Source: Enterobacter phage EC-F2. From it: a stretch of DNA of 64,000 bases. Below are positions 640-49,521 of this stretch, piece after piece. A model generated the notes under the pieces. That model saw only the letters and a list, made by a program, of their open reading frames with translations, was not told where the DNA came from and did not search any database. Every line of letters begins with the position of its first letter. The stretch's first letter is position 1. The stretch lies in the sequence record MN508624.2; one strand, written 5' to 3'. The position numbers and the translations under genes are program-made.

Positions 640-1815
640 ATGTTAACTGTAATGAACACAAACCCAGATCACAAACACTTAGAACAGCCTATGTTCTTTG
701 GTGAGGATACGGGCGTAGCACGATACGAAGAACAGAAACACCGTGTATTCGAAACCCTGACTGAAAAACAACTGTCATTCTTCTGGCGACCGGAAGAAGT
801 GGATCTGTCTATCGACCGTATGCAGTACGCGAAAATGCCGGAACACGAAAAAATCATTTTCGATTCAAACCTGCAATATCAAACCCTGCTGGATACCATT
901 CAGGGGCGCGGCCCGAACCTGGCGTTCCTCCCTATCGCTTCCGATGTCTCAATGGAAACGTGGATCGAAACATGGGCGTTCAGTGAAACAATCCATAGCC
1001 GCAGTTACACGCACATTCAGCGCAACCTACACATCGACCCGTCGAAAGAGTTCGATAAGATTCTGCGCAACGAAGCGATCATGAAACGTTCTGCTTCCAT
1101 GACAAAATACTACGATGATCTGATCGCAGAATGTCATGAACTGAAAAATATTGTACTCAAGCTGGAACTGTTTACCTCTCACGGATACCCAGACGAATCG
1201 ATCGCAGAGTACGAGAAGAAACGCAAAGAGCAAATGCGTAAATGCAAGGTTGCTCTATACCTGTGTATGCACGCTGTCAACGCTCTGGAAGCGATCCGCT
1301 TCTACGTGTCGTTTACCTTCACGTTCAACTTTGCCGAACAAGGCAAGATGGAAGGTAACGCGAAGATCATGCGTCTGATTGCCCGTGATGAAGCACTTCA
1401 CCAGAAAGGCACTCAAAGCAAGATCCGACTCTGGCAGATGGGTAAAGATGACCCAGAAATGGCGGAAATCGCTTACCAGTACGAAGAGGAAGCGACAAAG
1501 ATTTTCCTGGAAGTATACGAACAGGAAAAAGAATGGGCTGAACACCTGTTCTCTATCGGTGATGTAGACGGCGTATCCCTGAAAAGTACGATCGCCTATA
1601 TTGAACACCTGACGGATCAGCGTATGCGCGCGGTTGGCTTGCAGTCTCCATTTAAACCAACGCCGAACCCGTATCCATGGATGAACAAATGGTTGAAGTC
1701 TGACAACGTACAGGTAGCCCCGCAAGAGGTTGAAGTAAGTTCTTACCTGGTTGGCAACCTCAACACTGAGATCAGCGACGAAGCCTATGCAAAATGGCGA
1801 CAAAAATACGCTTGA
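640..1815 (+). CDS. nrdB: ribonucleotide reductase beta subunit NrdB (391 aa), uninterrupted by an intron
   Basis: 391-aa ORF with ferritin-like R2 features. Position after nrdA matches T4. Confidence 0.85.
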   Translation: MLTVMNTNPDHKHLEQPMFFGEDTGVARYEEQKHRVFETLTEKQLSFFWRPEEVDLSIDRMQYAKMPEHEKIIFDSNLQYQTLLDTIQGRGPNLAFLPIASDVSMETWIETWAFSETIHSRSYTHIQRNLHIDPSKEFDKILRNEAIMKRSASMTKYYDDLIAECHELKNIVLKLELFTSHGYPDESIAEYEKKRKEQMRKCKVALYLCMHAVNALEAIRFYVSFTFTFNFAEQGKMEGNAKIMRLIARDEALHQKGTQSKIRLWQMGKDDPEMAEIAYQYEEEATKIFLEVYEQEKEWAEHLFSIGDVDGVSLKSTIAYIEHLTDQRMRAVGLQSPFKPTPNPYPWMNKWLKSDNVQVAPQEVEVSSYLVGNLNTEISDEAYAKWRQKYA

Positions 1816-7007: not shown

Positions 7008-7084
7008 GGCCCTTTAGCTTAATTGGTTAGAGCGGGTGACTCATAATCGCGCGGTTGCTGGTTCAAGTCCAGCAGGGGCCACCA
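7008..7084 (+). tRNA. tRNA with anticodon CAT (Met, or Ile2 if lysidinylated), CCA encoded
   Basis: Cloverleaf checked by hand: acceptor ggccctt/aggggcc, anticodon loop ctCATaa, T-loop GGTTCAAGTCC. Confidence 0.8.
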
Positions 7085-7089
7085 AATAC

Positions 7090-7165
7090 GCAGGTGTAGT
7101 TCAATTGGTAGAATATCTGGTTTCCATCCAGATTGTTGAGGGTTCGAGTCCCTTCACCTGCTCCA
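7090..7165 (+). tRNA. tRNA-Gly (anticodon TCC), CCA encoded
   Basis: Acceptor gcaggtg/cacctgc, anticodon loop ttTCCat, T-loop GGTTCGAGTCC. Confidence 0.8.
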
Positions 7166-7739: not shown

Positions 7740-7765
7740 AGGCTATCTTCGGATAGCCTTTTTTC
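7740..7765 (+). terminator. hairpin aggctatcttcggatagcct + T6
   Basis: Perfect 8-bp stem with tetraloop and T-run. Confidence 0.55.
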
Positions 7766-7776
7766 TGGAGAAGCAT

Positions 7777-8346
7777 ATGCGCTTTTTGAAATACGCAAGC
7801 TGGCTTGTACTGGTTCCCCTGGATATTCTTTCGGGTGTTCTGGCTATTCTGCTGGCTCCTTTCGTGGTTCCGTTCTACAGTGACGAAACCGGACACTTAC
7901 CTAAAGGGTTCCGTTGGATGGAAACATTCGATAACCCGATCGATGGTGATGGTGGACATATCCGGCGTTGGGCTAACATCCGGTATCACTTAGGCGATCT
8001 GGGTGTGTATGCGCAACGTGTAGGCTGGTTGTGGCGTAACAAAGCGTACAACTTCGCTTATCACGTCTTAGGGCGTGAAGCACAGTCAGACTTCGCCTGG
8101 AAGGGCAACCCGAAAACAGAAGGTGGTTCCGATCCTTCGCGTCACGGTTATCTGTTGATGTGGAATGATTCGGCATGGGGGCTTTATGTCTTCAAACCGT
8201 GGCTTAAAGTCGGAAAGGTTCAGTTCTGCTTACGCGTGTATTGCGGGTGGAAACTGAAACAGGAAGTAACTGACCCTAACGGGCTGGATCGTGCAATGCT
8301 GGCGTTCCATATCAACCCGTTACGTTATTATGTCGTAGAAAGGTAA
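7777..8346 (+). CDS. hypothetical membrane-anchored protein (189 aa)
   Basis: N-terminal hydrophobic segment, Trp-rich. Confidence 0.55.
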
Positions 8347-8350
8347 TACA

Positions 8351-8713
8351 ATGAAAGCATATCAGATTTTAGAAGGTTTACACACTGGTACAATCTACCT
8401 GGAAGAAGGTAATGATGTTCGTGTGGTGGTATCCAAAACCCTCGAAATGGATTCAGTGATCGGTAAAGCTCGCGTTGCTCCATTCGCAAAACGTGAAGTT
8501 GATATTGAATTTCAACCCACTGTTAAAGTGGAAGGTGGACAACACTTAAACGTAAACGTGTTGCGTCGCGAAACTCTGGAAGATGCTGTGAAGCATCCAG
8601 AAAAATACCCACAGTTAACGATCCGTGTGTCCGGCTATGCAGTGCGTTTCAATTCACTGACTCCTGAACAACAGCGCGACGTTATCGCCCGAACCTTTAC
8701 AGAGAGTCTATAA
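8351..8713 (+). CDS. grcA: autonomous glycyl-radical cofactor (GrcA/YfiD-like; T4 Y06I-type spare part)
   Basis: C-terminus ...[62 protein letters not shown] carries the RVSGY glycyl-radical signature. Confidence 0.8.
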
Positions 8714-8994
8714 TGGCGATTGAAGACGTACAGGGCTATAAGCCCCATTCGAAAGAAAAGATCGACAAAGTAAACCGCATCAAGGCCGCAGAAGTTGCCC
8801 TGGGCGAAATCTTCAAAGAACTGGATGAAGAGTATTCAAGTGATTACGCGGTATCAGATACCGATTCATTCACTACAGAAGAACTCGATGCGATGCTTGA
8901 ACGTATCCATCAAATCCAAAAGGCGAAAGACCGACTGAAAGAAGCCTCTATGTGGGCGTGTCGCGCGGTGTTCCAGCCCGAAGAAAAGTATTAA
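8713..8994 (+). CDS. hypothetical acidic protein (93 aa)
   Basis: ATGG overlap with the grcA stop. Confidence 0.5.
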   Translation: MAIEDVQGYKPHSKEKIDKVNRIKAAEVALGEIFKELDEEYSSDYAVSDTDSFTTEELDAMLERIHQIQKAKDRLKEASMWACRAVFQPEEKY

Positions 8995-9044
8995 AATCAA
9001 GCCGTTGCCGAAAGGTAGCGGCTTTTTTCGTTTTTATGCAAAAT

Positions 9045-15165: not shown

Positions 15166-15744
15166 ATGAAAGAGAAGAAAAACACACTTGATAAATTTAT
15201 GGTTACGCGTTTAAACATCAAGAACAGCAAAAATAAAGTAGTCACGTTGCCTACTGGTGAACAGGTTACGATCCCCCGTCTGGGCTATCGTCATTTCACC
15301 CAGATTAAAGCAATGAAAGACCCAATGCAGTTGCTTGAGTATATCATCAAAGAGATTCAACCGCGCGAATTAACCGCAGCAGAAACCGAATTCCTTTTGA
15401 TTCACCTGCATTATCATAATGACGATAAGGCAATGGCGATACTGAAAGAGATCGGTATTAATCTGGATGATATGAAAATCAGCGAAGCTAAGTATGAACA
15501 TACTTTTGATAACCTTCGATTGGTATTCAACAAACCGACCCTAATGCTGGATGATCTGGCATTACTGCTTAAAGAAGCGTATGACAACGGAAAGCAGATC
15601 GAACTGACGGACGAAAACCGTATTCAATTAATTAACTGCCTGTATCGTTATGAATATGACGATGTAAAACGTGGCGTACTCCAGGAAGTCTATATTGTGC
15701 ATGAGGGGAAAACCATTAAAGGGCTTAACATCATCGGTGAATGA
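15166..15744 (+). CDS. 28: baseplate hub distal subunit gp28-like
   Basis: Size (192 aa) and position immediately upstream of gp29. Confidence 0.5.
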   Translation: MKEKKNTLDKFMVTRLNIKNSKNKVVTLPTGEQVTIPRLGYRHFTQIKAMKDPMQLLEYIIKEIQPRELTAAETEFLLIHLHYHNDDKAMAILKEIGINLDDMKISEAKYEHTFDNLRLVFNKPTLMLDDLALLLKEAYDNGKQIELTDENRIQLINCLYRYEYDDVKRGVLQEVYIVHEGKTIKGLNIIGE

Positions 15745-17495
15745 TAATGGCTAGCAATCCATATTTTAACGAAGAACAACGTCGCCGGATGCAAAATCCA
15801 CCAAAACCACAGGCGCAACCAACTGTTCGGAAGATCCAGGCAACGTTAGATAAAGATTCGATGCGCGAGTTAAAGGATATCAATGATAACACCCTTGAAA
15901 CCGCGCTGAATACTCTGGACATCAAAGACAGTGTGAAATCCTTTGAGGATCGTTTCAAAGAGAAATTCGCTGGCTTCCAAGAACAATACGAACAGGATCA
16001 GCAACCACTTGCTGAACAGTTGCCCGATTTTGTTGGTCCATCGCGTCCACCATCACTGACAGACAACAGCACGAACAGTGTTGATAACTCCGTCAGTGTA
16101 TCGAACCAACACAACCCTTTCAGCAAGATCGAAACATACACCGGAACGATTGCGGAAGCAATCACCAAGTTCCTCGAACTCGCTGAGAAGAAACCGGAAC
16201 CGCCACCTGAACCTGAACCAGTACCGGAAGAGGAACCGGAGGTCGATCGGGACAACAAGAAGATCCGTGATAAGGATAAAGACGAGAAGAAATTCAGTAA
16301 GAAAGTATTGGCCTTACTGGGTTCAATCAAGGATAATACATCCGGTCTTCTGGCTCGCTTTATCGGGTATTCTCTCGAAGCGATAGCGAAGTTTGCCAAG
16401 TGGACTTTGATTATCGGTAGTATCGTGTTTGCTATTGAAGTTTTAGGTAAAGTCATCGCTTCATGGTTTAATGATTTGCTTAATGATGGAGAAGCATCCA
16501 AAAAGTTGTTTGGATCATATTTCAACAATATAAAAGCGTTAGCGAAAAGTATAGATGACGGATTAGATAAATTAGGTGATAAAGATGCAACATTAGCAGA
16601 AAAATTAAAAGCTCTGTTAGTAGAACCGTTTAAGATTCTGGGCAATACCATTAAAACCGCAATCACGGAAGGTATCGGTAATCTAATCTATGCTCTGGGC
16701 GAATATACCGGATCAGAAACGATTACTAACGCCGGACGCGGAATGAAAGTATCAGCACTGCGCGACAAACAAAAATACGGTCTTGACATTGATCCCGATG
16801 ACCTGATTCTGCTGAAACAACAGGAGATCCAGGATCAGAATGATAAAGTGGTTGAGGCACGTTCTAAGGTTGTCGAACAGGTTAAGGCTACTCAAGGTAC
16901 ATTCTCATATGGTTTCGGGCAACAGACGGACGCACAGAAAGCGCTATCTAAGCAATTGGAACAGATGCGCGATCGTGTGGCTATTGAAGAAAAGATCACC
17001 GAAGAGAAGAAGAAAGAACTGAAAGCATTGCAGGAAAACCCCAAACTGTTACAGGCTGAGGTTGATAAAGAGAATGCCGCTAACCGTAAGCGCGTGAACG
17101 AAACCAAACAGACCGAAACCGAGCAAGCGAAAGCGAAACCTAAAGCGGATAGTGAATTTGATCAGGGCGATGAAATTCTGAACAAAGACAATCTGACGGG
17201 CAACGATAAAAAGGTAATGGAAAAACTCATAGAATCGCTTGAAGAGAAAAACAATTCGAACAAGCTGAATGAGGACGACAAAGACCGCTATCGTGATATG
17301 ATCTCCCGCTGGCAGGAAAAGATCACCGCAGTACCGGAAACGAGTGCAAGTATTGACAAGCAACCGGAAGCAGCGAAAGCCCCTGTTCAGCCTACAACGC
17401 CTAACAGTGTTCAGGTCAATAACAAAACAGTAAACAACACGGTTCAGCATTCAGTACAACGAACTGACCGTAAACCATTGATTGCATTAGCTTAA
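15741..17495 (+). CDS. 29: baseplate hub / tail-length determinant gp29-like (584 aa)
   Basis: Size close to T4 gp29 (590 aa). Coiled-coil and PE-rich linker. Precedes gp48. Confidence 0.65.
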   Translation: MIMASNPYFNEEQRRRMQNPPKPQAQPTVRKIQATLDKDSMRELKDINDNTLETALNTLDIKDSVKSFEDRFKEKFAGFQEQYEQDQQPLAEQLPDFVGPSRPPSLTDNSTNSVDNSVSVSNQHNPFSKIETYTGTIAEAITKFLELAEKKPEPPPEPEPVPEEEPEVDRDNKKIRDKDKDEKKFSKKVLALLGSIKDNTSGLLARFIGYSLEAIAKFAKWTLIIGSIVFAIEVLGKVIASWFNDLLNDGEASKKLFGSYFNNIKALAKSIDDGLDKLGDKDATLAEKLKALLVEPFKILGNTIKTAITEGIGNLIYALGEYTGSETITNAGRGMKVSALRDKQKYGLDIDPDDLILLKQQEIQDQNDKVVEARSKVVEQVKATQGTFSYGFGQQTDAQKALSKQLEQMRDRVAIEEKITEEKKKELKALQENPKLLQAEVDKENAANRKRVNETKQTETEQAKAKPKADSEFDQGDEILNKDNLTGNDKKVMEKLIESLEEKNNSNKLNEDDKDRYRDMISRWQEKITAVPETSASIDKQPEAAKAPVQPTTPNSVQVNNKTVNNTVQHSVQRTDRKPLIALA

Positions 17496-24661: not shown

Positions 24662-26908
24662 TTAGATTTTGACTTCTTTTTCTTCCAGGACGATTTCACA
24701 TTCGAATGATGTGGTTTCCCAGACTTTCCAGAAATCGGATGGAATATTATCTTCTTTCGGAAGAATATCTTTTGCAGCGATAGAAACTTTGGTTTCTTCG
24801 AAGTCCAGATCCGCGAACCATGCATGGGCTACTACAACACCGTACATTACGCGACTTAAACGGGCATTCAGTTTACGGACTTCCTGAATCGTTGCCTTTG
24901 TCTGCTTATCAAGATACTCGACTACCTGATCTTTGTCAAGCGCATCCAGTTCAGATTTCACCTGATCATAAGCCCACAGGATAATCAGGTCGCCGTTGTT
25001 CAGTTTCTTCTTACCTTCTTCACGCTTCGCGACGGTAGCCGCTACAGCAGGAAGGGAGGAAACACCCTTGATTTTCACGTTCAGTTCTTTCGACATGTAA
25101 ACATCAGTCGATTCTGTGCGCTCAACCTTCGGAGAGAACCCGTAATCACGAATACCCTGTTCAGACAGCCATTCACCCGCAGCCTCACCAAAGCGCTGTT
25201 TCAGCCCTTCTGCGTTGCGCAGTCCGATCGCGTTGTCACGGAAGAACTTCATAACCTTCTGACGGCCTTTCAGGATTTCCAGACGCACGTTATCAGTCAC
25301 GAACTCTTTACCGCTTAACCCGCGAGTCATGCCACGGTTAACCAGAGGCAGAGAGGTAAAGTCTACCAGAACAGACATACGATCATCACCGATTTTTTCG
25401 AGCGGCTTGATAGTCAGGCCAGAAGCACGAAGGTTTTTCAGTGTCGGAATATCGGTTTCCAGCGGCAGAACTTTAACGTTCACGATACCATCTTTAACGA
25501 TGGTGAAGTTACGCACCTGCTTAGTTTCGACTTTTTCCGGCAGACCGAATTCTTTCTGTTTGCTTTCTGGGATAGTCACATACCCTTCCAGATCCGTGTT
25601 GATGGAAATGTTCGGACGGGAACTGTTACCCACCAGATGTTTAACCGATACTTTGGTTGTGGTTTGGGTAAATTTCGGTGTCCAGACTTCATGCGCTACC
25701 ATTTGCGCCGCCAGTGCTTTACGTTCTTCTGGGGTTGCAGCGTTTGCGATCTGTTCGGTCAGTTGATCCAGTGTATCATCTTCTTTCTGTACCGTCTGAC
25801 GGCCTGTGCGGTTGTACGCCCAGTGCTCAGAAGACAGGTCGATCACTGTGTCAGTTTGTGCCAGCAGTTCGAGCGCATCAACCAGAGTGAACGCGTTTTC
25901 GTCTGGAACCATGTTGTAATCAATACCATCAACGAAACGCTGTGATGGATCTACAACAGCCTGTGCAATCAGGTCTTTCGCGTTGGAGTAGTCCTGTTTG
26001 GTAAAGCAGTTGTCATACGCCTTGATCAGACGGACATCACCCAGCTTTTGAAGCACTTTCCATGCCAGATCAGGGTTCATTGTGTGCAGTGCATGATAAA
26101 GCACGACATACAGAACTTGCTGTTCGCTGGCGATGTTCGGATCGAAACCGTCAACATCGTTGATCGCGTTTTCACCCAGCGCCCAGATGTTTTTGATGTG
26201 TTCTGGAACCAGCACAACACCGTTTGCAGCGTTCAGGACATACACGCGCCCTTCGTCCAGGTAGATCGCGTGGGTAGCATCAGCAACTTTGACTTCGATA
26301 CGTGCGGAAGTCTGCGCGGTGATGATTTCGTTAAATGCTGGTTCGTATGCGTCGAAACCTTCAACGAATTTGTGCAATGCGTTGGTTGCTTCTGCCATTT
26401 TTTCCAGCAGAGGACGGTTTACATAATAACCGTATTCCAGGAACGCGATACTGTTGAAAGTCAGTGGCAGAACCGCACACGCTTTCAGAATATCATCGGT
26501 ACGCCAGCAGTTATCATAACCATCGGTCAGGAAGATCAGGCTGTTCAGGTTGCCGTTTTCGGATTGCAGATCGGTAGCGATTTCCGCAGCCAGATTCAAC
26601 GGCTCAACAAAGCCAGTACAACCCGTAGGTTTCAGGTAACGGTCGATAGCCGCGCAGATGTTAGACAGGTCAGAGACATTGCTAACCTTCTCACCACGGA
26701 ACACCGTGCCGTAATCGCCTTTGCTGGAGAAGTACAGGATCGAAACGGTGTCATCCTGTTTAACCAGACTCGCCAGGTTTGCTTTCAGGTGTTTACGGAT
26801 CTTAGGCAGTTCGTTGTACATTGAACCGGATACGTCACACACGAAAACGTGGTTTGTCGGGGTTGGCTTCGATACAGCGTTTTTGAATTCGATATTTGTG
26901 ATTGACAT
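24662..26908 (-). CDS. von Willebrand factor A (vWA) domain protein, 748 aa
   Basis: N-terminal MIDAS motif VFVCDVSGSM...T...LTDG. Large uncharacterised C-terminal region. Confidence 0.65.
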   Translation of the reverse strand: MSITNIEFKNAVSKPTPTNHVFVCDVSGSMYNELPKIRKHLKANLASLVKQDDTVSILYFSSKGDYGTVFRGEKVSNVSDLSNICAAIDRYLKPTGCTGFVEPLNLAAEIATDLQSENGNLNSLIFLTDGYDNCWRTDDILKACAVLPLTFNSIAFLEYGYYVNRPLLEKMAEATNALHKFVEGFDAYEPAFNEIITAQTSARIEVKVADATHAIYLDEGRVYVLNAANGVVLVPEHIKNIWALGENAINDVDGFDPNIASEQQVLYVVLYHALHTMNPDLAWKVLQKLGDVRLIKAYDNCFTKQDYSNAKDLIAQAVVDPSQRFVDGIDYNMVPDENAFTLVDALELLAQTDTVIDLSSEHWAYNRTGRQTVQKEDDTLDQLTEQIANAATPEERKALAAQMVAHEVWTPKFTQTTTKVSVKHLVGNSSRPNISINTDLEGYVTIPESKQKEFGLPEKVETKQVRNFTIVKDGIVNVKVLPLETDIPTLKNLRASGLTIKPLEKIGDDRMSVLVDFTSLPLVNRGMTRGLSGKEFVTDNVRLEILKGRQKVMKFFRDNAIGLRNAEGLKQRFGEAAGEWLSEQGIRDYGFSPKVERTESTDVYMSKELNVKIKGVSSLPAVAATVAKREEGKKKLNNGDLIILWAYDQVKSELDALDKDQVVEYLDKQTKATIQEVRKLNARLSRVMYGVVVAHAWFADLDFEETKVSIAAKDILPKEDNIPSDFWKVWETTSFECEIVLEEKEVKI

Positions 26909-33263: not shown

Positions 33264-34331
33264 TCAGAGTCCCGTGAAAGCCACAACGATTTGATAGTGG
33301 TCATCGAAGAATTCCCCTTGTCGTTGTACGACCTCATGTAAGGGCATCCAGAACGCCTCTAGCGCATCGTCAGAACCGCCCATAATGCGGGGCAGACTAC
33401 CATCATTGTTAGGCTCTAACTTGATGTACTGCGCCACAGTCGGTTTTGAGAAGTATACGGAACGCTTCGGATGATCGAACAGCATCGAATTACGGATTGA
33501 ACCACGAATAACCTTTTCAGGAACCTTGATCCGTACCTCTTCGAGCAGTTCACGGATCGCACAATCCAGGAACGTTTCATTTGCGTTTTTGTGTCCACCA
33601 GGAAGGGCTAACGCGTCTTTACCTGGGGCAAACTTACGGCGAATTACCAGCAGGTGATTGTTACACACAACCACACTATCACCCGTGCAGCAGTTTAGCG
33701 CTTCTGGGTATGGGTAGTTTTTGAATTTCTCCAATTCGCTTTCCCATTTCTCGTATTCGTAGTACAGTCGCCAAAATGTATCCGTCATCATCCATGAATT
33801 GATATAACTCACAGTAGACGAAGGAACATAACGAGATAGTTTCTTATCCCATCCATTCTTATGCAAAAAGATGGTTGGTCGCAAATCGGTCGCAGATAAA
33901 TCTTTCCCGTCAACCTTAACTGGATCTACCGGAACATGAGTCCATCCAAACGCTTTCAGCCAGTATGAATCAGCATCCTTTTCGTAACCATAGATCGCGA
34001 TGTTGTCGCCTTTGGTTTCGTCGATTGCTGTACGAACAGAGGTTTTCCATTTTTCTTCGTTGTAAAGATAATCAGGAATATGAGCAAATTTAACACGACA
34101 AACATCTTCGTATTTGTATTCAGTCATCAGCCACGAAAAGATCATTCTTTCGCGTTCGTTCGCTGTCAGCGGGTTTAAAACGTTAGGGTAAGCATATGCT
34201 GAACCCAGAAGGATGTAAACGGTTTTTGCTTCTTCGAGTGCTTTACGCACCATTGCTGCATGACCATTATGGAAGGGTTGGAATCTGCCAATTACGACAG
34301 CTTTATCAAATTGTTTCATAACGTGCTCCAC
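33264..34331 (-). CDS. natV: bifunctional nicotinamide-mononucleotide adenylyltransferase / Nudix ADP-ribose pyrophosphatase (NadM/NatV-like)
   Basis: N-terminal VIGRFQPFHNGH (HxGH nucleotidyltransferase motif). C-terminal Nudix box GGHKNANETFLDCAIRELLEEV. Confidence 0.75.
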   Translation of the reverse strand: MEHVMKQFDKAVVIGRFQPFHNGHAAMVRKALEEAKTVYILLGSAYAYPNVLNPLTANERERMIFSWLMTEYKYEDVCRVKFAHIPDYLYNEEKWKTSVRTAIDETKGDNIAIYGYEKDADSYWLKAFGWTHVPVDPVKVDGKDLSATDLRPTIFLHKNGWDKKLSRYVPSSTVSYINSWMMTDTFWRLYYEYEKWESELEKFKNYPYPEALNCCTGDSVVVCNNHLLVIRRKFAPGKDALALPGGHKNANETFLDCAIRELLEEVRIKVPEKVIRGSIRNSMLFDHPKRSVYFSKPTVAQYIKLEPNNDGSLPRIMGGSDDALEAFWMPLHEVVQRQGEFFDDHYQIVVAFTGL

Positions 34332-42486: not shown

Positions 42487-43833
42487 TCAAAAATTGTCTT
42501 CAACAAAAGCTGCAAGTCGCCCACGATATACGGTATCCAGGATCACATGACTTGAATGACCGTACTCTTTAAGTTTTTCAACCGCATACACAAAGCCGTT
42601 GTTAACAGCAGTATTGCGCGGGTTGTCAATCTGTTTAATGTTCCCGCATAGTATCAGAAGGGTGTTCTCACCGCAACGGGAAATGATGGATTTGATTTCG
42701 TGATTGCTCAAGTTTTGACATTCATCAACAATCAGAACCGAACCTTTACCCGGATCAGGATGCCCGATTGAGCGCCCACGGAAGTAATACAGGCTAGGGA
42801 ACTGGACAACGTTTTTCTCCAGCAGCCCTTCTACGTATTTGTCAACTTCCGGTTGATCCTTAAACAGAATGTTCAGGCTCGTAATACATGGTTCTACAGC
42901 AGGACGCAGTTTTTCGCCAAGAGTACCAGGTAAGAACCCGATTTCGCCCGACAGAGGGCTATCTGCCTTGACATACATCAGGTTTGCGAAGTGTCCCGCG
43001 TTTACCATGTGCATTGCACCAGCAACAGCCAGCATGGTTTTACCTGAACCCGCCGCGCCCATGATGGTCACAACGTCATTGTTTTTGTCCAGAATAGCAT
43101 CAACGAATGACGCTTGCAGAGCATCGCGAGGCTGGATTGTTTTCATCAGCTTACGCTTTAACGCCTGTTCGTGCTTAATAGGCAACACTTCAAGCTGAAA
43201 CTCTCCAGCATTCACCACACGCCCTACAATCTCACCACACGATAGAATGTATTGGTTAGGGTAGAAATCCGCGTCAGGAAGCGATGAATACGTTATAACG
43301 GCAACAGGCCCGACATACTCCAGGACTTCAACAGTTTCCCAGAACAGAGGCAGGTCGATATAACCTGAATACAACACATCACTATCTTTCAGCGAGTCAT
43401 CGCCAGTGTATTGAAGAACCGAACAACCTTTAGACATCGCGATCAACAGCATGTTAATGTCACGAGTCACCAGAGTTGCGCCCTGCTGAATACAAGTTGC
43501 AATGATCCGCACATCCTGTTTATCCAGAGGGAATTCTTCGGTGCCGTCATAATCGACGATTTTCAGTGTTACGCTTTCCGGTACTGCTGGGTTCGATAAG
43601 TTTAACGAAACCCCTGTTTGGGTAATTGCTTCATAATTTTGTCCCAGGATTGCTTTGGACAAAAGCCGGATCGCCAGTCGTGCTTCATGAGCGGTTCGCT
43701 CTTTGCTTTTCAGGTGATCCAGTTCTTCCATCGTTGCAGCGGTGATAATGATTTCGCTGTCAGGTTCGATGTAAGAATAGATTGAATATGGGTTACTAAT
43801 CAAAACATTGGTGTCTAATACGTATTTTGACAT
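42487..43833 (-). CDS. phoH: PIN-domain + PhoH-like ATPase (PhoH2-type)
   Basis: N-terminal VLDTNVLI (PIN), Walker A GAAGSGKT, Walker B LIVDECQN. Confidence 0.8.
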   Translation of the reverse strand: MSKYVLDTNVLISNPYSIYSYIEPDSEIIITAATMEELDHLKSKERTAHEARLAIRLLSKAILGQNYEAITQTGVSLNLSNPAVPESVTLKIVDYDGTEEFPLDKQDVRIIATCIQQGATLVTRDINMLLIAMSKGCSVLQYTGDDSLKDSDVLYSGYIDLPLFWETVEVLEYVGPVAVITYSSLPDADFYPNQYILSCGEIVGRVVNAGEFQLEVLPIKHEQALKRKLMKTIQPRDALQASFVDAILDKNNDVVTIMGAAGSGKTMLAVAGAMHMVNAGHFANLMYVKADSPLSGEIGFLPGTLGEKLRPAVEPCITSLNILFKDQPEVDKYVEGLLEKNVVQFPSLYYFRGRSIGHPDPGKGSVLIVDECQNLSNHEIKSIISRCGENTLLILCGNIKQIDNPRNTAVNNGFVYAVEKLKEYGHSSHVILDTVYRGRLAAFVEDNF

Positions 43834-47860: not shown

Positions 47861-48153
47861 CAGTAAGTAATCTCCGCAAACTGCATTCTACGCTCAATCG
47901 CATGGATAGCGTTATCACGCTGTTCTTTGTTTTCATATCCAGCCCAGGTAATCGGGGTTGAACAGATCAGGTGAAAAGTGATTGCTGGGTGTCTCTTCCC
48001 TTCAACAACGATTGTTGCATCATCTTCGATCCAGGTTACGTGATCCAGATTCACCGGATAGTTTCTTACGGTAACAGATTCACCAACCAAAGGCGACACG
48101 TCCAGAATATCACGATCGCTGACATATGATTTAATACGAGATACGATTAACAT
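47860..48153 (-). CDS. hypothetical protein (97 aa), translationally coupled to the radical-SAM gene
   Basis: Stop/start overlap at 48153. Confidence 0.5.
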   Translation of the reverse strand: MLIVSRIKSYVSDRDILDVSPLVGESVTVRNYPVNLDHVTWIEDDATIVVEGKRHPAITFHLICSTPITWAGYENKEQRDNAIHAIERRMQFAEITY

Positions 48154-49304
48154 TATTTTAACTCCACTGCATATACATCGGTTTCAGGGGCTTTGTGTAC
48201 GCGCATATCTTTACCACATACCGCATAAGCCGGACAGTTACGGCAACCGTTATGATCCTTGTTGCCCGTCAGTTCTTTACGGAACTGTTTTGTTTTCGGG
48301 TGTTCCCAGATATCCTTCACAAAATCTTCGGCTTCCAGAACATCCAGACCTTCTTCCCAGCCACCTTCAACCCAGCGTTCGGTAAACGAGCAAGGGAAGA
48401 ACTGACCACGTTCGTTGATATAAGAGCTAAACATCGTCGCTTCACAGTCTTCGGCGTATTGCTTGTACTGTTCGAAGTTCGGGTGTCCCTCCATCGCTTC
48501 AACGAAAGCGGGGGCTGAACAGCTATCGAATCCAAATCCTACACCAGAATCGAGGCAATATTCAACAAGTTTTTTATATTGTTCGCGGGTAACGGTGTCC
48601 CAGTTCTTACCGCGTCCTTTTTGTTTCAGTCCCAGGAACACGATCGCGTTGACTTGTTTCAGGCGCGGATCATTCTTCACGGCATCAACCACGTTAAACG
48701 CATCATCATAGGTTTTCGAGCTAACCATGAAGTGAAGGTTGATTTGCTGTTGTCCGGCTTCTGTCAGGTTCGCTACTGAGTCGAAAGCGACATCAAAACC
48801 AGCGTGTTTATAAACCGATACCGCAACAGCCCCAGCAACCGCCGCTAAACGCGCTGCAACGTCTTTTGATACGTCAGCAATGGTAAGGTTCGGCACAATG
48901 CCTTTAGAACGCGCATACGCCATCATATCGAACATATCGGGGTTTGTTTGCCCCTGTGCATCAGCACCGAGTGCGCATTGAGTAAGCCAGGGCATTTTGT
49001 CGATGATTTTTTTGAAGTTGGCAAGATCCATGTTGAACCCGTTCGGGTTATTGGACTTGTAGCAGAACCCGCAGAGTTTACCCGCTGGACCGTTGCATTT
49101 GGTAGTGATCTCGATATCGAGAATTTCGGGGAATGGTGCGTATTCTGGATCGTGGGAATATGTTGCACCCCAGCGAGCGAATTCACCAGTATCAACGTTG
49201 AAATTATAGTTGTAGAACTTCGAGCGAGCGAAGCGCATATTGCCGTGTTGATAGATGAACAGGGACGGCGCTTTGATGCTGGTAACGATATCGACAGTTT
49301 TCAT
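48153..49304 (-). CDS. radical-SAM-like enzyme with atypical Cys spacing and a C-terminal Cys cluster (start set at MKTVDIV)
   Basis: TTKCNGPAGKLCGFCY (C-x8-C-x2-C), glycine-rich GADAQGQTNPD region. C-terminal CSF...NGCRNCPAYAVCG is twitch/SPASM-like. Confidence 0.5.
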   Translation of the reverse strand: MKTVDIVTSIKAPSLFIYQHGNMRFARSKFYNYNFNVDTGEFARWGATYSHDPEYAPFPEILDIEITTKCNGPAGKLCGFCYKSNNPNGFNMDLANFKKIIDKMPWLTQCALGADAQGQTNPDMFDMMAYARSKGIVPNLTIADVSKDVAARLAAVAGAVAVSVYKHAGFDVAFDSVANLTEAGQQQINLHFMVSSKTYDDAFNVVDAVKNDPRLKQVNAIVFLGLKQKGRGKNWDTVTREQYKKLVEYCLDSGVGFGFDSCSAPAFVEAMEGHPNFEQYKQYAEDCEATMFSSYINERGQFFPCSFTERWVEGGWEEGLDVLEAEDFVKDIWEHPKTKQFRKELTGNKDHNGCRNCPAYAVCGKDMRVHKAPETDVYAVELK

Positions 49305-49314
49305 AATATAATTC

Positions 49315-49521
49315 TCAAAATTTAACATGGGATTGGAAGACAGCGCGAGCAAGGCTTTCATTGTCGAACGGTATCGACTGGTGTTTCTCTTTGCTGTCAA
49401 TGTTAACGCGCCAGAACTCACTCGAACCGTTTTTGGTGGAGTAATGCATCAGCGTTACCGTTTTATTCTTTTCCAGGAAAGTACGTTTGTCAATCTCTGT
49501 TTTGATTTCGTGCTGCATCAT
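49315..49521 (-). CDS. hypothetical protein (68 aa)
   Basis: ORF. Confidence 0.45.
   Translation of the reverse strand: MMQHEIKTEIDKRTFLEKNKTVTLMHYSTKNGSSEFWRVNIDSKEKHQSIPFDNESLARAVFQSHVKF

Follow-up and report, generated by a model that had tools for sequence, protein, structure and literature searches.

According to the passages of PMC8683613 that draw on Wagner et al. (2001), only two spare-part proteins for pyruvate formate-lyase (PFL) are validated, YfiD (GrcA) of E. coli and Y06I of phage T4; given a glycyl radical by PFL-AE, both restore O2-cleaved PFL. The biochemistry of the T4 protein dates from 2001 (Wagner 2001, via PMC8683613). In YfiD, residues 61–127 form the structured radical domain and residues 1–60 are disordered in solution; the latter are needed for cPFL binding and for efficient activation, and are dispensable for catalysis (PMC8683613). 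The gene encoding Y06I, vs.6, was present in six of six T4-like genomes, RB43 among them (Nolan et al., 2006; PMC1524935). In T4-like phages it is well known as an auxiliary metabolic gene and is widely annotated, and its presence is ordinary for this phage group.

The stretch of DNA analysed here (the window) comprises 64,000 nucleotides of Enterobacter phage EC-F2 (MN508624.2), an RB16/GAP161-type T4-like phage of the Straboviridae; RB16 itself is classified in Pseudotevenvirus. An ATG-initiated open reading frame at 8351..8713 of the plus strand, encoding 120 aa plus stop, is preceded by a Shine-Dalgarno-like GAAAGG, found by inspection at 8338..8343 (plus strand), 7 nt 5' of the ATG. We read its product, at a probability of roughly 0.8, as a vs.6/Y06I-type autonomous glycyl-radical cofactor that repairs O2-cleaved host PFL and has been inherited vertically. 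The original prediction, made from the sequence alone, had labelled it a GrcA/YfiD-like spare part analogous to T4 Y06I; the label stands and can be sharpened, as comparison of the proteins shows an RB16/GAP161-lineage ortholog of T4 vs.6. The product is 76% identical to T4 vs.6 over all 120 residues without gaps (54% in residues 1–59, 97% in residues 60–120) and 99% identical to vs.6 of RB16. It matches PHROG 1209 with an E-value of 1.1e-59 over positions 1–120 of 121 (1.9e-12 for the N-terminal half alone) and carries the phage-type N-terminal pattern MKAYQIL.G.H.GTIY...R.IVSKT.

The 2.2 kb around the gene are 99.0–99.6% identical to those of Cronobacter phages JC03 and GAP161, Klebsiella phage Kp_GWPR59, Citrobacter phage Citrof4, and Enterobacter phage PF-CE2, with 99.6% reached by JC03 and Kp_GWPR59; for Escherichia phage RB16 the figure is 92.7%. 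The gene already bears the annotation "autonomous glycyl radical cofactor" in several near-identical genomes. More widely, homologs occur in 1,587 phage records, as judged by tblastn. The GrcA homologs of T5-like phages (Demerecviridae) and of jumbo phages likewise stand alone, measure about 120 aa, and share the two-part design, their genes frequently lying close to tRNA genes; however, they are only 52–61% identical to the EC-F2 protein, and their C-terminal blocks keep 47–50 of 61 host GrcA residues.

Gene order points the same way as protein similarity. In RB16 the counterpart of 8351–8713 is annotated as vs.6 and the next ORF as vs.4, and the proximity of these two genes is kept in T4, RB16, KMB17, and the Jiaodaviruses. 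T4 vs.6 has the same length of 120 aa, no indels, the same PHROG, and vs.4 nearby; the T4 order is, however, vs.6–vs.5–vs.4, whereas in EC-F2 vs.4 follows vs.6 directly, and T4 vs.6 lies between denV/vs.8/vs.7 and regB, whereas the EC-F2 gene is located after cd–31–tRNA and before 30.3/30. The placement downstream of tRNA genes, as originally described, is borne out by ARAGORN, which finds tRNA-Met (CAT) and tRNA-Gly (TCC) at 7008..7165 on the same, plus strand, about 1.2 kb upstream of vs.6; the arrangement of the tRNAs is the same in RB16.

Immediately upstream of vs.6, a gene at 7777..8346 (plus strand) encodes a DUF7338 protein (PF24027, E = 5e-65; PHROG 2143), with a gap of 4 nt between its stop and the start of vs.6. 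Downstream, vs.4 at 8713..8994 (plus strand; PF24729, Acb2/Tad1-hairpin family, E = 2e-16) overlaps vs.6 by 1 nt, its ATG sharing a base with the vs.6 stop (TAATG). Members of the Acb2/Tad1 family are anti-CBASS cyclic-nucleotide sponges. The three genes are bracketed by terminator-like hairpins on the plus strand, one 5' of DUF7338 at 7740..7759 and one just 3' of vs.4 at 8999..9024, the latter with an 11-bp stem and a T-run; this arrangement suggests that DUF7338, vs.6, and vs.4 form one transcription unit. A simple scan upstream of vs.6 gave no sigma-70-like promoter. Bacterial grcA, in contrast to this operon-like unit, occupies the chromosomal context ung–grcA.

Elsewhere in the window, the minus strand encodes a cytidylyltransferase-like protein fused to a NUDIX domain (33264–34331), a PIN domain fused to a PhoH-like ATPase (42487–43833), and a VWA-domain protein of 748 aa (24662–26908); the ORFs at 15741–17495 (plus strand) and 48153–49421 (minus strand) give no Pfam match.

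The C-terminal half of the vs.6 product (aa 60–120; 8528..8710, plus strand) is a glycyl-radical domain, as had been proposed for the last 60 or so residues. The glycyl-radical signature [13 protein letters not shown] occupies aa 92–104 (8624..8662, plus strand), and Gly95, encoded at 8633–8635 (plus strand) and placed within RVSGYAVRF, which contains the RVSGY motif, is the counterpart of Gly102 of GrcA and Gly734 of PflB. Pfam assigns Gly_radical (PF01228) to residues 60–101 with 66.9 bits against a cut-off of 22.2. The NCBIfam matches are to GrcA and PFL families, with the NrdD model absent from among them; the best PDB match by sequence is 6OWR (E = 3e-42), and structure comparison of the model relates the predicted C-terminal half to the YfiD NMR structure 6OWR and to the glycyl-radical domains of PFL, CutC, and related enzymes. 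Against the GrcA model TIGR04365 the phage protein scores 155.5 bits, with residues 18–120 aligned to model positions 23–126, while E. coli GrcA scores 233.9 bits; the phage score falls short of the curated equivalog cut-off of 170 bits because the N-terminal half is divergent. Formally, the protein belongs to the phage vs.6 subfamily and is not a bacterial GrcA equivalog.

The 61 residues of this block are identical to E. coli GrcA 67–127 at 61 of 61 positions, the radical glycine included. Against PflB 699–759 the signature [13 protein letters not shown] is unchanged, and 48 of 61 residues are identical (79%); the near-identity to the C-termini of both proteins that had been predicted thus holds for GrcA and was overstated for PFL. 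The phage protein also differs from PflB in general design: PflB carries its radical domain on a catalytic barrel enzyme, whereas the phage protein is a stand-alone polypeptide of 13.5 kDa without a barrel.

The N-terminal half (aa 1–59; 8351..8527, plus strand) is fast-evolving, 7 residues shorter than that of E. coli GrcA and about 25% identical to it. It had been predicted to be unrelated to GrcA, and on this point our results differ. BLASTP with the N-terminal halves alone, one of the checks proposed with the prediction, yields a collinear alignment of the phage and E. coli sequences with 25% identity over 51 aa. Comparison of N-half profiles by hhalign (8 phage against 60 bacterial sequences, built with the invariant C-terminal block removed) gives a probability of 96.8% and an E-value of 2.8e-10 over 64 collinear columns, and the TIGR04365 alignment, beginning at residue 18, likewise extends into this half. 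In an alignment of 41 phage and bacterial sequences intermediates are present; Arg24 is invariant, and Gln5, Ile6, Lys29, Asp34, Arg48, Glu49, and Pro56 are near-invariant across phage and bacterial N-halves. AlphaFold2 predicts five strands in the same order for the N-halves of both the phage protein (pLDDT 91–93) and E. coli-type GrcA (pLDDT 84–90). Judged by profiles and predicted topology, the phage N-half is a diverged homolog of the GrcA N-half. An origin of the N-half from PflB 560–699 was also considered and rejected, since hhalign detects no similarity (probability about 0.1%). As for the fold, Foldseek returned only insignificant KOW/SH3-like matches.

The phage protein is, therefore, a full-length GrcA homolog, with its C-terminal 61 residues identical and its N-half homologous to those of E. 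coli GrcA (YfiD; 6OWR; TIGR04365): the docking half has diverged, and the inserted half is frozen. By analogy, this split fits the published division of labour in YfiD. The confident beta domain predicted by AlphaFold2 stands against the NMR disorder of YfiD residues 1–60; judging from the models, this region of GrcA may fold on binding cleaved PFL. The 25% identity of the N-halves leaves room for altered partner recognition.

How the C-terminal block came to match the host so closely is a question of synonymous sites. The same 61 residues occur in GrcA of E. coli, Citrobacter, Edwardsiella, Trabulsiella, Pantoea, Pectobacterium, Serratia, and Xenorhabdus. This invariance across many genera of Enterobacterales indicates that the amino acid identity to the host reflects purifying selection, not recency. 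At the nucleotide level the phage block and E. coli grcA share 83.1% identity, with changes at 31 of 45.5 synonymous sites (pS 0.68) and at none of 137.5 non-synonymous sites (pN 0). For scale, pS is 0.59 between E. coli and Serratia and 0.64 between E. coli and Vibrio; the phage–host value of about 0.7 is thus as large as those between enterobacterial families. We also considered GC3 as a signature of transfer, and found it uninformative: the value of the block (0.44) fits both the window genes (mean 0.48) and E. coli grcA (0.43). The N-half has a low GC3 of 0.29.

In sister phages, tracts of host sequence are readily seen in the same gene. The T4 block is 97.8% identical to E. coli grcA in nucleotides (the EC-F2 value of 83.1% differs clearly), with two synonymous and two non-synonymous differences, and that of Mosigvirus RPN187 is 98.4% identical. 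In T4/Mosigvirus, identity to E. coli grcA, about 50% on the 5' side of the I/V-EGGQ codons, jumps to about 98% exactly there, and the tract, which spans the 3' 183 nt of vs.6, ends at the stop codon, with only 10–11 of the next 40 nt matching. Altogether, an identity of 95% to nt 200–384 of E. coli grcA is reached or exceeded in 486 phage records. In Jiaodavirus phages of Klebsiella and Salmonella the block shares 92.9% identity with a Klebsiella grcA and includes a tract of about 125 nt that is almost perfect. Synonymous divergence is discordant between the halves: T4 and RPN187 have pS 0.28 in the N-half and 0.09 in the block, while among Jiaodaviruses pS is higher in the block (0.32) than in the N-half (0.18). 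This discordance indicates recurrent host-to-phage gene conversion of the vs.6 block in T4, Mosigvirus, and Jiaodavirus relatives, as judged by their nucleotide patterns.

Klebsiella-infecting phages (Roth88, a Slopekvirus-like Klebsiella phage, and the Jiaodaviruses) have ETLLDAVEH in place of ETLEDAVKH, i.e., two Klebsiella-type residues. In Roth88 they occur despite an identity of only about 79% to Klebsiella grcA at the DNA level, so that the phage protein tracks the host protein at the level of amino acids.

The EC-F2 block has none of the marks of such a mosaic, taken here as an identity of at least about 93% to a host grcA together with an abrupt 5' breakpoint: its maximum identity is 84.2%, and no abrupt 5' breakpoint is seen, identity to host grcA declining gradually. 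Synonymous divergence from other phages is, moreover, concordant between N-half and block, 0.05 and 0.02 for RB16, 0.57 and 0.56 for Roth88, 0.70 and 0.68 for T4, and nucleotide identity to Roth88 changes smoothly along the locus (DUF7338, 76%; N-half, 81%; block, 85%; vs.4, 76%). These comparisons indicate vertical inheritance of both halves within the phage lineage. For the T4-like phages at large, we give about even odds to the view that the 3' half of vs.6 is a recurrent conversion target, the EC-F2 lineage being either unconverted or anciently converted, with its match to the host maintained by purifying selection alone. In the literature searched we found no published account of recurrent vs.6 conversion; key older T4 papers lie outside that search.

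The most durable rival differs from the preferred explanation in history alone, the function being the same: the C-terminal block might have been overwritten by an unsampled enterobacterial grcA before the split of the RB16/GAP161 and Slopekvirus-like phages, with synonymous drift thereafter. Such an old conversion would accord with the recurrence of conversion in T4/Mosigvirus and Jiaodavirus, with the 59–61 of 61 host-type residues kept in the EC-F2 lineage against 47–56 of 61 in the copies of KMB17, GEC-3S, PM2, T5-like, and jumbo phages, and with the two Klebsiella-type residues of Roth88. However, no donor was found among the sampled bacteria, N-half and block agree in pS, and the blocks of E. 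coli and Xenorhabdus differ with pS 0.95 and pN 0 in the absence of conversion; purifying selection alone is therefore sufficient. We consider an old conversion possible but unlikely, and retain vertical inheritance of the whole gene under purifying selection.

With respect to function, the EC-F2 protein is likely a radical-bearing stand-in for the C-terminus that cleavage removes from host PFL, with host PflA as its activase, by analogy with the validated proteins. Oxygen would cut active host PFL at Gly734; the phage protein would then bind the cleaved enzyme, with its N-half aiding docking, and its C-terminal 61 residues would fill the place of the lost PFL C-terminus. Host activase PflA would put the radical on Gly95, and PFL activity, converting pyruvate and CoA to acetyl-CoA and formate, would be back. 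A GrcA copy of its own could sustain fermentative ATP and formate output in micro-oxic hosts, and would be useful to these phages because they shut down host gene expression. That the EC-F2 protein has the same activity as its T4 ortholog and YfiD, and that the phage benefits from it, we infer by analogy.

Formate is the reductant of class III ribonucleotide reductase (RNR), and sustained PFL activity, as this suggests, may also feed phage dNTP synthesis through formate and NrdD. The window itself contains no nrdD or nrdG, and encodes the small subunit of an aerobic RNR at 640–1815 (plus strand); NrdD is encoded by the near-identical phage EC-F1. In Yersinia jumbo phage fHe-Yen9-04 the GrcA homolog (g132) is located between nrdD (g130) and nrdG (g135), an order which hints at a functional link of PFL repair and formate supply with anaerobic dNTP synthesis. 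The same order could be taken to mean that the phage protein serves the phage class III RNR (NrdD/NrdG), and not host PFL, as a spare radical domain; phage groups with the homolog also carry NrdD, and a role in nucleotide metabolism was speculated on by Nolan et al. (2006; PMC1524935). Against this, the block is identical to that of GrcA and 79% identical to that of PflB, the NrdD model is missing from the NCBIfam matches, and the T4 ortholog complements PFL, according to PMC8683613. A spare part for NrdD is thus very improbable, and repair of host PFL is preferred.

A recent chimeric capture, i.e., the joining of a 3' half lately copied from host grcA or pflB to an unrelated 5' half of phage origin, had been proposed for this gene in the original prediction. 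Such an event is indeed visible in relatives, namely in the T4 and RPN187 blocks with their sharp 5' breakpoint, and the EC-F2 block is identical in all 61 amino acids not only to E. coli GrcA, but also to GrcA of Salmonella, Cronobacter, and Citrobacter. The nucleotide comparison with the 3' ends of E. coli grcA and pflB, suggested at the time as a check, goes against it, as the two values are 83.1% and 70.5%. About 90 sampled bacterial grcA genes, including those of known host genera, are 76–84% identical to the block, and a set of 80 bacterial species has its top match at 84.2% (Serratia and Morganella). By genus, the identities are 80.9% for Salmonella, 79.8–80.3% for Klebsiella, 76.5–79.2% for Enterobacter, 80.9% for Cronobacter sakazakii, 78.1% for Kluyvera, and 82.5% for Citrobacter; hence, E. 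coli, Salmonella, Klebsiella, Enterobacter, Cronobacter, Kluyvera, Citrobacter, Serratia, and Morganella were all rejected as donors at only 76–84%. Among 5,426 complete E. coli genomes, no copy of the block exceeds 90% identity. Metagenomes were scanned twice for MITGIQI, a start of the bacterial type, with one or the other of two 23-mers of the window type after it, and no matches were obtained; the geometry of the pattern was validated by its recovery of E. coli-type genes in fetched loci, and, as the matching was exact, this is a weak negative. With block identities of 76–84% and pS of about 0.7, with equal pS in the two halves, and with an N-half that is homologous to GrcA and not foreign, recent capture is excluded at the sampling used, and we assign it only a slight residual chance, below that of the NrdD alternative. 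The idea of chimeric capture holds, on nucleotide identities of 93–98%, for T4, Mosigvirus, and Jiaodavirus relatives, and not for EC-F2. The choice first posed, between identity to phage Y06I homologs across the whole protein and a host-identical C-terminal block, is a false dichotomy, as both the full-length match and the host-identical block are real.

Least probable of all is a role as decoy or inhibitor, in which the protein would titrate PflA or block host PFL and so redirect pyruvate; its divergent N-half could alter binding behaviour. Against this, the catalytic glycine and all radical-domain residues are kept with pN = 0, which would be needless for a mere blocker, and the T4 ortholog restores activity according to PMC8683613.

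Generally, amino acid identity to a host protein is not evidence of recent transfer when that protein is invariant across genera, and synonymous sites are needed to judge it. The 183-bp block in T4, Mosigvirus, and Jiaodavirus would provide a clean case for the study of phage–host recombination and of why an exact copy of the host radical domain is needed. If the pattern is general, a phage auxiliary gene would be kept matched to the host enzyme by recombination with the host chromosome, and vs.6 would be a natural model system for this process.
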